Below are positions 52,098-64,000 of a DNA stretch of 64,000 bases, piece after piece. The stretch is from NCBI GenBank assembly GCA_000165345.1, contig CM000432.1:288001-352000 (forward strand), read 5' to 3'. The first letter of the stretch is position 1, and the number at the start of each line of letters is the position of its first letter. A program made the position numbers and the translations under genes. Below the pieces are notes generated by a model that searched no databases, was not told where the DNA came from, and saw only the letters and a program-made list of their open reading frames with translations.

Positions 52098-55000
52098 TTA
52101 TAACTTTTTTATTGTTAAGGTTCCCTTATGTAAATACCAAAACTTTTTAATTCCATTCAAATTTCTAATATCATGAGCAACAATAAATGTAGTTGAATGG
52201 CTAAAATACTTAAAAATAATATTTGTAATCAAAGTCGATTTCTTGTTTGAAGTAGAGTTCATATTCACATTATCATTACAATAAATTACCGGTGGCTCAT
52301 CAATCAGTAAAATACTTATTTCATTTCTCTTTAAGAAGTAATGAGTAAATAATAACAACCTCTGTATTTGCATTGGTAAATTTAATTCACTAATCTTCCT
52401 GTTCAAATAATTATTCATTATGGTAAGTCTGTCATTTCCCATTAAAAGAGGTGCACTTTCATCTGGTTTTTTCTCTCCCACAAAAGAATTTTTGAAATTT
52501 ATCTTATGGTTAAAATTATTCATGGTTTCTCTTTCTAATAAATAATTAGTTACACCACATATGTTCAATGCAGAAATTATGTTATCATTTGAATAATTTT
52601 CAAATGGGTCAACAGATTCTCTTATTGTTGTATTCTCATTAAAAAATACCTCAACAGGAAGCATTGCAACATGTCTCATCATATTATAATCTTCCAAAAA
52701 TATCTTCATTATTTCTTCATCCACATTACTCCTACATAACTTGCAGTTTACTAAGTGGTTGCTGTTTAGTAAATTATTATTGGAAGAAATTGGATGGCTT
52801 ATTTTTCCTTTATGTTTCAAAGATTTTGCTATTAAAAATAGTAATGAAGTTTTTCCAGACCCTGATCGTCCAACTATTCCTATTATCTCTCCTTTATTTG
52901 CTATAGCATTTATATTATTTAAACAACAAACTTGTTTTACCAATGTTCCTCTAACTTCTGAACGATCTAATTGAGATTTCTCATTCTCCGTTGATAAATT
53001 TGAATGATAACCATATGCTGACTCTAATATTATATTATTATTTTGGTTCATTTTTATATTGTTATCATATTTCACATTATTGTTTTCTAATAAATCATTC
53101 TTCATTTTGTATTCATCTTTAATAAGCTCCAAATACTTTCTCATCCTTTCCACAGAAACTAATTCCTTTTCTAGTCGCATTAAATACCTCACAACCTCGT
53201 CAATTCTGCTTAGAGAACCAAAAGCAGTAGCAATCATTAAAGCTATTAATATTTTTGAACTTCCATTTGAAAAATATGATGAAAATACATTGAAAAATGT
53301 TAATGGAATAATAATTCCAACTTGAAGTCTAATCTTTAGCCAAGCTTCCAGAGAAGATTGAATATATATTGGTCTCATAATCTCTTGAAGCTGGCCATAT
53401 CCATTTTCTAAATAAAATCTGTCCAACTTCTGAGGTCTTATACATTCTTTTCCATCGCATATATTTCTAACTGTATCTACTAATAATGAAATCTCTGAAA
53501 TATAAGTATTATGTAATAATCTGCATGAATGTATAAAATACCTAAATATATATTTATATATTATATAGAAAAGTATTGAGAATAATATAGTCTGTATTAT
53601 TGGATATTCTGAAGCTAATATAGATAAATATATTGTTGCCAATACTCTATTAACTGCTGTAACAAATTGTCCAACCCTTTTAGTTGTACAATAATCAATT
53701 GTGAGTTGGTCCAAGCTGATTCTATTCAATATAAATGATACTGGTATATATCTGATACAAGAAGAAAGTTTTGATCCAATATATCCTAATAAAAATGAAT
53801 TATGCAAATTATTCGCAGCTCTTAATCCAACGTAAACTTCTAGAATACCGCTTGCAATGACTGATAGTATTGCCAAAAAAATACAAACAAAATATGTGAA
53901 ATAAAGAATATCAACACCTATAATTCCTCCAATTTTACTTCCTGTTTCACTTACTAGTGATAAATTACCTAATAGTACTTTTTCTCCAAATAATAAAATG
54001 AATTGATGAAGCAATAGTAATACCAAATAAAGTATCATTTCTAATGATGATTCTTGAATCTTTTCAGTAATTGACCAATTTTTTGGATATTTAAATCTAT
54101 TTGCAGCTTTCAATATATAGAAAAATAAAGTAGAGTATGAGTTTTCTGAAGAGCCACCTAAAACTTCTTTTTTTGGAAGAAGCTCAATAAATTCTTCAGT
54201 TTTTTCCTCACAACATTTTAAACTATTTAATCCCATATCCACCCTATTTTCATACTTTATATGAGTTTGGCTATCAGCAATTTCACTTTCATTACCGTTA
54301 GAATTACTACTTAAATTTAAGACTTCATCCTCCTCAGTAGAAAGTTCCCACAAATCTTTAGAAAAATCAGTATCAAAGCAGAAATCATTAATAATAGAAT
54401 GTATACTGGAAGATGTATTAACACTTGTAGTTGATTTTGGTGATTCAATATTGACACCAAAACTCCTATTTTCACCATATTTGAATGGTATTACGTGTAT
54501 TATAGATTCCAGAATATTATTAGGAAGGAAATTAAGCATTTGAGTATCCAAAATCATTATAGAAAATACATGTTTCAGTAATCCATTTTCATGATTAAAT
54601 AGTTTCTCAAGTATTGAACAACAAACTGGAGGATCCAAACTACTAAATATTGAATCTAATATCAAAATTGGAACACCATCTTGAAGATTGTTGTTAGATT
54701 CATCATTTTTAGATTCAATTCCATATAATGCTCTTGAAAGAGAAAGGCGAACCTTTTGGCCTCTACTGAATTGAACTTGTGAGAATATAGTACTTCTGGC
54801 CATATCATAAGTTGAAATACCCCAAGATACAAAGTCATTCCTTAGCTCACAAATATCTATAACTCTCTCCCATGAATCCTGGTCATAATCTCTTCCATTC
54901 AAAATAATATCAGCTAGACTCATACCATCTGTAATCCACGAATCCAAGGGAACATAACATACTGGGTTAGAAATGTCTGCCAATATATTCGATATTTCTC

Positions 55001-62292: not shown

Positions 62293-64000
62293 TTAAGCTT
62301 CAAATACTCTAAAGTTGTTATTAATAATCAATAGACGGTTAATGCTTGAAATTTGTTCAAAATGATGTGTGGCAATAACCACTGAGCAATTTGGAAAGTA
62401 TTTTTTTAAAATAAAGTCAATAACTGAAATGTAACCGCCATCCTCTGTTGTTAACCTATAATTAGGTAGCTCGTCAAGAAGAAGTAGTCTGTATTTTTGA
62501 CTATTTAAAGCAAGACGAAGCAAAAGCAACATTCTTTTTTGATTCCCGTTAAAGTTAAAGTCACTTATAGGTAAATCAAGTATTTTGAGATTCAAGGGGG
62601 AGAGAATTAAGGGAAAAGATTCACAAGATTTAGGTGAAAATTCCTTATCTTGAGTTGATTGGTCATACAGTAAATTCTTCTTTTTATCAACAAGTCCAAA
62701 TAAATCCAATAAATCTAAAATTTCCAAGCTTGAACGAATATTCTCCGAATCCAAAACCTCTATTAGTTTTAAGTTCCCAGGAAAGTCTACTTTGATTGGA
62801 ACGTAAGCTATACCAGACAAAAATTCGAGCATTCTAACAGAATTCAAAAGAATGTTTGGATCAATTTCTGATACTTGCGTTATGGTTTTAATTCTTTCCA
62901 ATGACGATTCCTTCATCCTGTAGTAATCATCCTCTTTCTCATTATAGCTTTTGGTTTCAGTTGATTTATTATTACATAGGTACTGGCTATAACGTCCTCT
63001 ATAATTATTTCCACTTATGCTCCCACCTCTAAAAATAGACAAATACTTTCTTTTCTCTTGAACTTCTTTTCGTAATCCGTCTTCCAAACCTAGTAACCCA
63101 CCCTTGACTAAATTCTCAGCCTCATCGTTATCATCATCATTATCATCAACTCCTATTTGCTCATTCTCATCTCCTATTGTCAGTAATCCCCTGTGAACAG
63201 TTTTGGCGCCTTTATAAACTTCCATAATCCCACCTATCACCTTTAACAAAGAAGTCTTCCCTGAACCAGTTCTTCCGACAATACCAATGACATCGCCAAC
63301 TCTAATATTCAAATTTACTTTCCTCAAACAAGAGTACTGGATAAGGTTGTTATAGTTATTAATTGTTGAGGAAAATGGATCATTTCTTAGTTTAAGGTGT
63401 TTGCAGTCAACATTGTTCAATGTCATTAATAAAGAAGAATTCTCTGTTGAGTTAGAATAATCAATCTTCAGATTTTCACCAAACCTGTCATCTTGTATAG
63501 CCTCTATGAGAAGCTTCATTCTTGTTACTGCTAATAGCTCATTCTCCATTTTTACCCAATATTTCACTGTTGAGGAGGTAATCTTCGGAATTGTTAATCC
63601 TACACCAATAATAAAAATTACTATTTGTGGAATAGTTTTCTCATTTCCTTTAGAGTTTGGAAACAATATTGGAAACAAAACATTTATTGATGTTAAAACT
63701 ACTGGTAATAAAAAATCCAATCTTAATCTAAGCCATGCAAACATCATATTTTGACAATAAAGTGGCGCCATCATTTCGAGCGCCCTTCTATTGCATCTTT
63801 GCATCATGTACGAGGATAAATGGTTTTGATGAATATCGTCAATTCCGAGGTTAATAGAGTGTGCAATATCTGATATAGCTGTTTGAGAATTCAGGAAAAG
63901 TAGTCTAAGAGTTCTGCAAGTGTTTATAAAGTATGAAAGGTAGTTCCAGTATATAAATAACAAGAAAAGAAAACCAATTGGAATACAAGTCATTGGATCC
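62293..64000 (-). CDS. Third ABCC-like ABC transporter paralog, C-terminal part only (TMD2 tail plus NBD2); the gene continues beyond the window end
   Basis: The open frame runs to the window edge. TMD2-like N-terminal region; NBD2 Walker A IVGRTGSGKTSLL; degenerate signature plus Walker B GNQKRMLLLLRLALNSQKYRLLLLDELP. It is colinear with the C-terminal 40% of the two upstream paralogs. Confidence 0.75.
   Translation of the reverse strand, partial: DPMTCIPIGFLFLLFIYWNYLSYFINTCRTLRLLFLNSQTAISDIAHSINLGIDDIHQNHLSSYMMQRCNRRALEMMAPLYCQNMMFAWLRLRLDFLLPVVLTSINVLFPILFPNSKGNEKTIPQIVIFIIGVGLTIPKITSSTVKYWVKMENELLAVTRMKLLIEAIQDDRFGENLKIDYSNSTENSSLLMTLNNVDCKHLKLRNDPFSSTINNYNNLIQYSCLRKVNLNIRVGDVIGIVGRTGSGKTSLLKVIGGIMEVYKGAKTVHRGLLTIGDENEQIGVDDNDDDNDEAENLVKGGLLGLEDGLRKEVQEKRKYLSIFRGGSISGNNYRGRYSQYLCNNKSTETKSYNEKEDDYYRMKESSLERIKTITQVSEIDPNILLNSVRMLEFLSGIAYVPIKVDFPGNLKLIEVLDSENIRSSLEILDLLDLFGLVDKKKNLLYDQSTQDKEFSPKSCESFPLILSPLNLKILDLPISDFNFNGNQKRMLLLLRLALNSQKYRLLLLDELPNYRLTTEDGGYISVIDFILKKYFPNCSVVIATHHFEQISSINRLLIINNNFRVFEA

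Follow-up and report, generated by a model that had tools for sequence, protein, structure and literature searches.

An ancient, genus-wide triplet of highly diverged ABCC-type transporter genes in Cryptosporidium, with one ATP site predicted to be degenerate in each protein

Introduction

Do the ATP-binding cassette (ABC) transporter genes that stand head-to-tail at one locus of Cryptosporidium parvum record a recent expansion of drug pumps or are they an old and settled set, and how might their products use ATP? We addressed this question for a stretch of 64,000 nucleotides (nt) (positions 288,001 to 352,000 of contig CM000432.1, assembly GCA_000165345.1; hereafter the window), probably on chromosome 4. 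Three long intronless open reading frames (ORFs), all on the minus strand, occupy positions 52098-64000 of the window and are called copies C, B and A below. A reading made from the letters of this DNA alone (the sequence-only reading) had proposed that they encode paralogous ABCC-like pumps, each with its own E2F box upstream, which might have multiplied in this lineage and might continue past the right edge of the window. Our results support the ABCC-like paralogy, but in place of a continuing expansion they reveal an ancient triplication that is fixed across the genus.

Three complete genes stand head-to-tail

The three same-strand ORFs of 1490, 1469 and at least 566 amino acids (aa) had been placed exactly by the sequence-only reading, in position as well as in length (Table 1). 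Because the strand is minus, the order of transcription is A, B, C, and it is the N-terminal two thirds of copy A, not its C-terminus, that the window edge cuts off. Counted from the first ATG within the window, copy A gives 566 aa (62293-63993) in a frame that is open up to 63999; the full gene encodes 1522 aa and starts 2861 nt past the edge (L001:4662-9230). Each copy has its own start and stop codon and a full set of transmembrane domains (TMDs) and nucleotide-binding domains (NBDs), which in copy C follow the order TMD1-NBD1-TMD2-NBD2. At the DNA level the similarity among the copies is near nil, with two short and weak blastn matches between B and C and none with A. The window was 100% identical across 15 kb to an independent C. 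parvum assembly (GCA_031892065.1) and the Logan read-assembly contig SRR5007564 bears the same three genes; since both sources agree with the window, the array is neither mis-assembled nor a single gene that was split.

Public records already annotate the array correctly, and its identity as ABC genes is not new. GenBank has all three genes for C. parvum Iowa II and ATCC, copy B is 100% identical to a deposited C. parvum ABC transporter, and C. hominis, C. meleagridis and C. tyzzeri are represented there by near-identical copies, under the differing names 'ABC transporter', 'putative integral membrane protein' and 'hypothetical protein'. Several gene models in the records look fragmented or differently started. 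The Iowa II model of copy B has 1479 aa and is marked 'partial' (1469 aa in the other records), the C. felis model of copy C has 1202 aa (78% coverage), copy A of C. canis comes in pieces of 832 aa and 439 aa in some assemblies and as 1511 aa in another, and the C. hominis TU502 model of copy A has 1035 aa.

Two links to published gene names were considered. The triplet may correspond to the legacy identifiers cgd4_1370-1390. One C. hominis record names the B orthologue 'ATP-binding cassette transporter abc3', and copy B was not accepted as the published CpABC3, because CpABC3 is described as multidrug-resistance (MDR)-like (PMC6736360) and copy B is ABCC-like.

The array has three members in all species read

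The extent of the array was read from the sequence 10 kb to each side of copy B and was found to be exactly three genes. Upstream of copy A follows an inorganic pyrophosphatase gene on the opposite strand, which disposes of the suggestion that the array extends further to the right, and downstream of copy C lies a RING-finger gene (49443-51503). The same block, pyrophosphatase(-)/A/B/C/RING finger/RCC1 protein(-), was present in C. andersoni, C. bovis, chipmunk genotype I and C. hominis. The comparison of synteny with related species that had been called for therefore gave a conserved copy number: three copies with identical flanking genes in five of five (C. parvum and these four), each copy an uninterrupted ORF of about 1430-1600 aa. 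For copies C and A, databases contain additional full-length orthologues from other species. An extra gene call of 160 aa, on the opposite strand, separates copy C from the RING-finger gene in C. andersoni (L003 20415-20897); the other species are without this call.

The copies are old paralogues of a genus-restricted clade

The common architecture and block-wise similarity noticed in the sequence-only reading were borne out, as the copies align over their full length with 24-30% identity. Copies C and B matched with 615 bits (E=0, 30% identity, about 1540 aligned columns), and the partial copy A matched B at 4e-32 and C at 3e-22. We built a neighbour-joining tree of nine proteins (A, B and C of C. 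parvum, C. bovis and C. andersoni) with plant ABCC proteins as the outgroup. Bootstrap values were 94 for the A clade and 100 each for the B clade, the C clade, B plus C, and all nine together. This was further supported by an extended tree to which the next-best matches of the scan described below were added (another Cryptosporidium ABC protein, a Besnoitia ABC transporter and fungal proteins), where the nine were monophyletic in 50/50 replicates. The paralogues thus group with each other, with full bootstrap support in both trees (100/100 and 50/50), and the trees gave no sign of copies falling into different ABC subfamilies. Since each copy clusters with its own orthologues, the duplications are older than the gastric/intestinal split, the deepest split sampled. 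Two tandem duplications, both before the sampled Cryptosporidium radiation, best account for the array; copy A would have come off first, with B and C separating afterwards, an order that could be a long-branch effect.

Selection on the three copies was assessed from substitution ratios. Ratios of nonsynonymous to synonymous substitution (dN/dS, Nei-Gojobori) between C. parvum and chipmunk genotype I were 0.124 for A, 0.126 for B and 0.151 for C, compared with 0.057 for the neighbouring pyrophosphatase gene and 0.229 for the RING-finger gene. Between C. parvum and C. hominis they were 0.138 for B and 0.123 for C. Ratios of 0.12-0.15 point to purifying selection that keeps all three copies, and thus to genes that are not pseudogenes. 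A dN/dS of 0.86 has been reported for cgd4_1380; either this gene lies outside the array or the methods differ strongly.

To define the reach of the clade, we scanned 1.84 billion representative proteins in full with HMMER, using copy B residues 85-1284 as query. Nine matches scored at least 139 bits, and every one of these that was identified proved to be an A, B or C orthologue from Cryptosporidium. The next match, at 125 bits, was a different Cryptosporidium ABC protein, followed at 116-124 bits by proteins of fungi (Massospora, a chytrid) and Besnoitia. A word-indexed homology search had found no paralogues of the copies, which the full HMMER scan did. On present data, the clade appears to be restricted to the genus and highly diverged from all else.

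The proteins are ABCC-like

Assignment to a subfamily rests on several kinds of evidence. The Pfam model ABC_tran (PF00005) scored 34.5 bits in C, 66.4 in B and 34.7 in the partial A, against a gathering cut-off of 25; two stretches passed separately only in B, and NBD2 alone was reported in C and the partial A. In sequence searches against solved structures (PDB), the full-length matches among the best 60 rows per copy were all ABCC proteins, as the sequence-only reading had proposed, and no full-length ABCB or ABCG transporter was among them. The best matches overall were CFTR, MRP1/2/4/5, YCF1 and SUR, headed by ABCC2 and MRP1 (3.6e-29) for copy B, by AtABCC2, ABCC5 and CFTR for copy A and by CFTR, AtABCC2 and MRP1 for copy C. 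The alignments span both TMDs as well as the NBDs, and with phmmer TMD1 of copy B (85-479) aligned to ABCC13 and TMD2 (780-1223) to CFTR. Named neighbours outside the clade include plant ABCC5/MRP5, fungal YCF1-like and crab ABCC2-like proteins; several others carry no subfamily name. The rest of the NCBIfam result was uninformative beyond the one match discussed below, consisting mainly of bacterial NBD models far under their cut-offs.

Topology and fold agree with this assignment. Hydropathy fits a layout of 6+6 transmembrane (TM) helices, clearest in copy B, with the first near residue 92 and no TMD0. An AlphaFold2 (AF2) model of copy C residues 1-760 has six long TM helices (102-417) followed by an NBD. 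Its mean predicted local distance difference test score (pLDDT) is 66, with means over 10-residue blocks mostly 62-89 across the TM helices. Ahead of TM1 are about 85-100 residues with three predicted helices (pLDDT 39-60), where the lasso (L0) motif of ABCC proteins would lie. In Foldseek this model matched type IV exporters, with rice MRP5 and human MRP5 at the top. Over both half-models the probability for type IV exporters was 1.0 across more than 600 columns, and the best matches include rice MRP5, hMRP5, ABCC2, ABCC4, CFTR and YCF1; the model of the C-terminal half of copy B (mean pLDDT 57), where ABCC proteins match first, adds weak corroboration. Sequence and models together support a type IV ABC exporter fold, i.e. 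two six-helix TMDs that each precede an NBD.

Taken together, our results show that the copies are highly diverged ABCC-type full transporters of the 'short MRP' form, with N-terminal helices, TMD1, NBD1, linker, TMD2 and NBD2. We have very little doubt about what the array is, where it ends, how old it is and that its products are ABCC-like.

One ATP site is kept and the other is decayed

The motifs of the two ATP sites were tabulated for nine orthologues, i.e. copies A, B and C of C. parvum, C. bovis and C. andersoni. Site 2 is made of Walker A, Walker B and the H-loop of NBD2 together with the NBD1 signature, and site 1 of the same motifs of NBD1 together with the NBD2 signature. In site 2, Walker A reads GRT/SGSGKT in eight of the nine (GRTGCGKT in C. 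andersoni B), and the Walker B LLxDE with its catalytic Glu, the H-loop His and the NBD1 signature xSxGQ are found in every protein. In site 1, all nine are without the Walker B Glu (VFLIDC in copy B, ILILDS in copy C) and without the H-loop His, and the NBD2 signature is degenerate throughout (GFGILQMR in B, NLPMQIQR in C, NFNGNQKR in A). The asymmetry by which ABCC proteins are recognised, an NBD1 Walker B that lacks Glu combined with a degenerate NBD2 signature, is accordingly present in 9/9.

A further ABCC trait, a P-loop kept in the degenerate site, is shared less widely. All B orthologues have the NBD1 P-loop, as does copy A of C. andersoni, the gastric species sampled, and it has disappeared from every C orthologue and from copy A in C. 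parvum and C. bovis; copies A and C have lost the NBD1 Q-loop Gln as well. The alignment of the three copies also revealed an insert of roughly 90 residues, partly of low complexity, between Walker A and the Q-loop region of NBD2 in copy A. The motif table thus predicts one competent and one degenerate ATP site per protein, which is what the sequence-only reading had expected from the incomplete NBD1 Walker B, the degenerate NBD2 signature and the intact NBD2 Walker A and B. Two features go beyond that reading, namely the loss of NBD1 Walker A in two of the three C. parvum copies and an NBD2 without the Q-loop Gln. Judged from these motifs, the decay of site 1 clearly exceeds the usual ABCC pattern.

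Comparison with known systems

Short ABCC proteins (human ABCC4/MRP4 and ABCC5/MRP5) and CFTR (ABCC7), which are among the best sequence and fold matches of the copies, share with them the forward order TMD1-NBD1-TMD2-NBD2 without TMD0, the NBD1 Walker B without catalytic Glu, the degenerate NBD2 signature and a GRTGSGK-type NBD2 P-loop. CFTR has a Ser at the position of the NBD1 catalytic Glu, as does copy C, and in known ABCC proteins the degenerate site has kept its ATP binding. The copies differ from them in being only about 15-22% identical, in lacking the NBD1 H-loop His and, for A and C, also the NBD1 P-loop and Q-loop Gln, and in having an NBD2 without Q-loop Gln but with extra inserts and TMDs without a Pfam ABC_membrane match. 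One consensus and one degenerate ATP site is also the arrangement of the heterodimeric type IV exporters TM287/288, BmrCD and EfrCD, and exporters of this type were fold matches of the copy C half-model. Unlike the triplet, however, these are bacterial, consist of two separate polypeptides and still have a P-loop in the degenerate site.

Within C. parvum, the characterised MRP-like transporters CpMRP1 (cgd7_4520) and CpABC1/CpABC2 are encoded on chromosome 7 (PMC12477738; PMC6736360). They belong to the same ABCC-like class as the copies, but the triplet lies at a different locus and forms its own clade, and in CpMRP1, in contrast to the triplet, ABC-membrane domains can be recognised and identity with human MRP4 is 30% (PMC12477738). 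Another tandem cluster of ABC transporter genes in this genome, cgd2_60-cgd2_90, is subtelomeric on chromosome 2 and contains two genes, cgd2_70 and cgd2_90, for which dN/dS >1 is reported (PMC6532270). The triplet differs from it in lying about 335-360 kb into a chromosome record of 1.1 Mb and in its low dN/dS.

Proposed mechanism and alternative explanations

A single-site exporter mechanism can be proposed on the basis of what the Walker A Lys, Walker B Glu, H-loop His and partner signature are known to do in ABC ATPases. ATP would be bound and hydrolysed at site 2 as the sole competent site, this hydrolysis would drive the inward/outward switch of the type IV exporter, and the crippled NBD1 would serve mainly as a structural partner that donates its signature motif. 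We lean towards this mechanism, with appreciable reserve. Combined with the secure part of our results into a fixed, ancient and genus-restricted ABCC triplet that exports by means of one site, it forms the reading we favour and regard as probable overall, in a judgement that blends the two.

A bolder version, which we put forward tentatively and would expect to fail more often than to hold, is that the triplet records three steps in the dismantling of the degenerate site: B keeps the NBD1 P-loop, A would have lost it within the genus and C before the radiation, and all of them would manage without the Q-loop Gln in the good site. If this is true and the proteins are active, they would represent eukaryotic ABC exporters of full length that need only one nucleotide and are confined to Cryptosporidium; to our knowledge, such a single-nucleotide mode has not been described for ABCC proteins.

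Several observations weigh against the reading we favour. The NBD2 Q-loop Gln, a residue that normally contributes to the coordination of Mg2+ and the attacking water and links the NBD to the TMD, has given way to Leu, Val or Ile in 9/9, so that hydrolysis at the 'competent' site may not proceed normally. NBD2 also has inserts specific to this lineage, some following Walker B and others separating Walker A from the Q-loop, and together with the missing Gln these leave room for a slower, switch-like (CFTR/SUR-like) mode. Pfam ABC_membrane (PF00664) had no match in any copy at E<=0.01, as the TMD sequences are too diverged for this profile, and the fold is backed by other evidence. Of the three, only copy C matched the NCBIfam MRP equivalog TIGR00957, with 57 bits against a cut-off of 1470; this is so far below the cut-off that the copies are ABCC-like but no orthologues of canonical MRPs. 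Both AF2 half-models are of modest confidence, the trees are neighbour-joining only, and copy A evolves fast, hence the doubt about the order of branching. Finally, the searchable literature contained nothing specific on the triplet and no functional study, and no expression, localisation, ATPase or transport data on the three genes.

The most serious alternative, although in our view an unlikely one, is that the proteins are not pumps but ABCC-derived ATP-gated channels or regulatory subunits of the CFTR/SUR kind, in which ATP binding at one site acts as a switch. CFTR and SUR are indeed among the best sequence and fold matches, the substitution of the NBD2 Q-loop Gln and the lack of a site 1 P-loop in copies A and C would suit such a function, and the long NBD2 inserts could be regulatory. 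However, the genus-wide conservation of the NBD2 Walker B Glu and the H-loop His argues that hydrolysis has been retained, MRP-type pumps match no worse than CFTR or SUR, and no candidate gene for a partner channel is linked to the array.

The remaining alternatives concern the genes rather than their mechanism. A recent, lineage-specific tandem expansion of multidrug pumps with variable copy number, continuing past the window, was the picture given by the sequence-only reading; the tandem same-strand layout would suit it, as would the fast evolution reported for other ABC genes of the genus, such as the cgd2_60-cgd2_90 cluster (PMC6532270). We now find it highly improbable, since there are three copies between the same flanks in five species across the gastric/intestinal split, the paralogues have diverged to 24-30% identity while orthologues cluster by copy, and dN/dS gives no gene-averaged sign of positive selection. 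Even less credit is due to the idea that at least one copy, especially A or C with their lost NBD1 P-loop, is a decaying pseudogene or non-functional relic. The loss of Walker A, Q-loop and H-loop residues from NBD1, the weak Pfam scores and the low-complexity inserts could be read in this way, but against it stand ORFs that are intact in five species, with more full-length C and A orthologues on deposit, the low dN/dS, and NBD2 catalytic motifs and an NBD1 signature that are invariant in 9/9. An assembly artefact, in which one gene had been duplicated or split, has nothing but the repeated architecture in its favour. With essentially no DNA similarity between the copies, a full domain set and own start and stop codons in each, and the same arrangement in independent assemblies and species, its probability is negligible. 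The proposal that the ORFs might be fragments of one mis-assembled gene can therefore be dismissed.

E2F-type boxes around the array

The sequence-only reading had assigned an E2F-box spacer to each gene; this stood for copies C and A but not for B. The spacer upstream of C contains an exact palindromic box (Table 1), the TGGCGCCA core of which is conserved in C. hominis and chipmunk genotype I. Upstream of A, in the divergent spacer shared with the pyrophosphatase gene beyond the window, are an exact TTGGCGCCAA box and a TTGGCGGGAA box. The A-B spacer (61523-62292) had no E2F-type box even at <=2 mismatches in any species checked, and no such boxes were seen at the promoters of the array in C. 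bovis and C. andersoni. Matches with <=2 mismatches are enriched in the window, with 25 found vs 8.4 expected.

Boxes of this type also occur within the genes. Because the spacer of B has none, we considered two E2F-like cores inside the 3' part of copy A, TGGCGCCA at 63762-63771 and GGCGCCAA at 63203-63212, which lie 1.7-2.2 kb upstream of the B ATG; they might serve copy B or be due to chance. Of these, the core at 63762-63771 is shared by C. parvum, C. hominis and chipmunk genotype I. Two further boxes, an exact TTGGCGCCAA palindrome (55219-55228) and a TTGGCGGGAA box (55297-55306), stand 78 nt apart within the coding sequence of copy C, at about 1.27-1.35 kb from its start. This pair matches the pair at the pyrophosphatase/A promoter (L001 3794-3803 and 3874-3883), with about the same spacing and in opposite orientation. 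C. hominis has the pair too (L007 11267 and 11343), whereas chipmunk genotype I does not. An internal or antisense promoter could lie here.

Other features of the window

The window is low in G+C, about 18-35% across 2-kb bins. Its richest bin, 32001-34000, has 35% vs about 27%. This bin is overlapped by a 559-aa ORF without a Pfam match (32921-34600, minus strand), which in turn is overlapped on the other strand by a 283-aa ORF (33135-33986, plus strand). At 3938-7417 (minus strand), an ORF of 1159 aa with two AP2 domains (Pfam 7e-29) represents a gene for an ApiAP2-type transcription factor. The reductase, bromodomain and RCC1-repeat genes (Table 1) are also adjacent in C. hominis (locus L007).

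Table 1. Coordinates of the array, its motifs and its neighbours in the 64,000-nt window
Feature	Position	Strand	Remark
Copy C	52098-56570	-	Complete, 1490 aa; EAK87612.1 / CPATCC_001620; GenBank name 'ABC transporter'
Copy B	57113-61522	-	Complete, 1469 aa, least degenerate; QOY42027.1 / EAK87713.1 / CPATCC_001621; GenBank name 'ABC transporter'
Copy A, 3' part	62293-64000	-	568 C-terminal codons, mid-TMD2 through NBD2; EAK87614.1 / CPATCC_001622
B-C spacer	56571-57112	-	542 bp; presumed promoter of C
A-B spacer	61523-62292	-	770 bp
Exact palindromic E2F-type box TTGGCGCCAA	56944-56953		In B-C spacer, 374 nt upstream of C ATG
Copy B NBD1 Walker A GKILSGKS	60113-60136	-	Sole intact NBD1 P-loop among the three C. 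parvum copies
Copy B NBD1 signature FSAGQ	59756-59770	-	Part of the predicted competent ATP site
Copy B NBD1 Walker B VFLIDC	59672-59689	-	Asp present; catalytic Glu replaced by Cys
Copy B NBD2 Walker A GRTGSGKT	57932-57955	-	
Copy B NBD2 Q-loop position FLPLEIY	57725-57745	-	Leu at position of expected Gln
Copy B NBD2 degenerate signature GFGILQMR	57479-57502	-	In place of LSxGQ
Copy B NBD2 Walker B ILLVDE	57416-57433	-	Catalytic Glu present
Copy B NBD2 H-loop IVSHD	57245-57259	-	His present
Copy C NBD1 Walker A position FSCNDISYNH	55146-55175	-	No P-loop
Copy C NBD1 Walker B ILILDS	54651-54668	-	Catalytic Glu replaced by Ser
Copy C NBD2 Walker A GRSGSGKT	52848-52871	-	
Copy C NBD2 Walker B ILLIDE	52296-52313	-	
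Copy A NBD2 Walker A GRTGSGKT	63253-63276	-	
Copy A NBD2 Walker B LLLLDE	62470-62487	-	
Glycine-zipper protein gene	35392-37185	-	
DUF726 protein gene	37591-39996	-	
Flavodoxin/FAD-binding reductase gene	40608-43034	+	
Bromodomain protein gene	43046-45469	-	
RCC1-repeat protein gene	46291-49179	+	

Significance

The finding is real but largely ordinary: an ancient, fixed and genus-wide triplication, with no ongoing expansion. Modest points of interest are the extreme decay of NBD1 and the missing Q-loop Gln of NBD2. A role of the triplet in drug export would be speculation.

Few drugs exist against Cryptosporidium. Counts of ABC transporter genes in C. parvum give 21 (PMC6532270, PMC12477738), of which the triplet makes up three. 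CpMRP1, located at the host-parasite interface, shields the parasite against a toxic metabolite of the gut (PMC12477738); a similar place for the triplet, drawn by analogy, is speculative. A trio that is restricted to the genus and strongly conserved could matter for the handling of nutrients or toxins, or as a set of selective targets. For the mechanism of ABC transporters, its copies provide a natural series for judging how far the degenerate site of an ABCC protein can be reduced.

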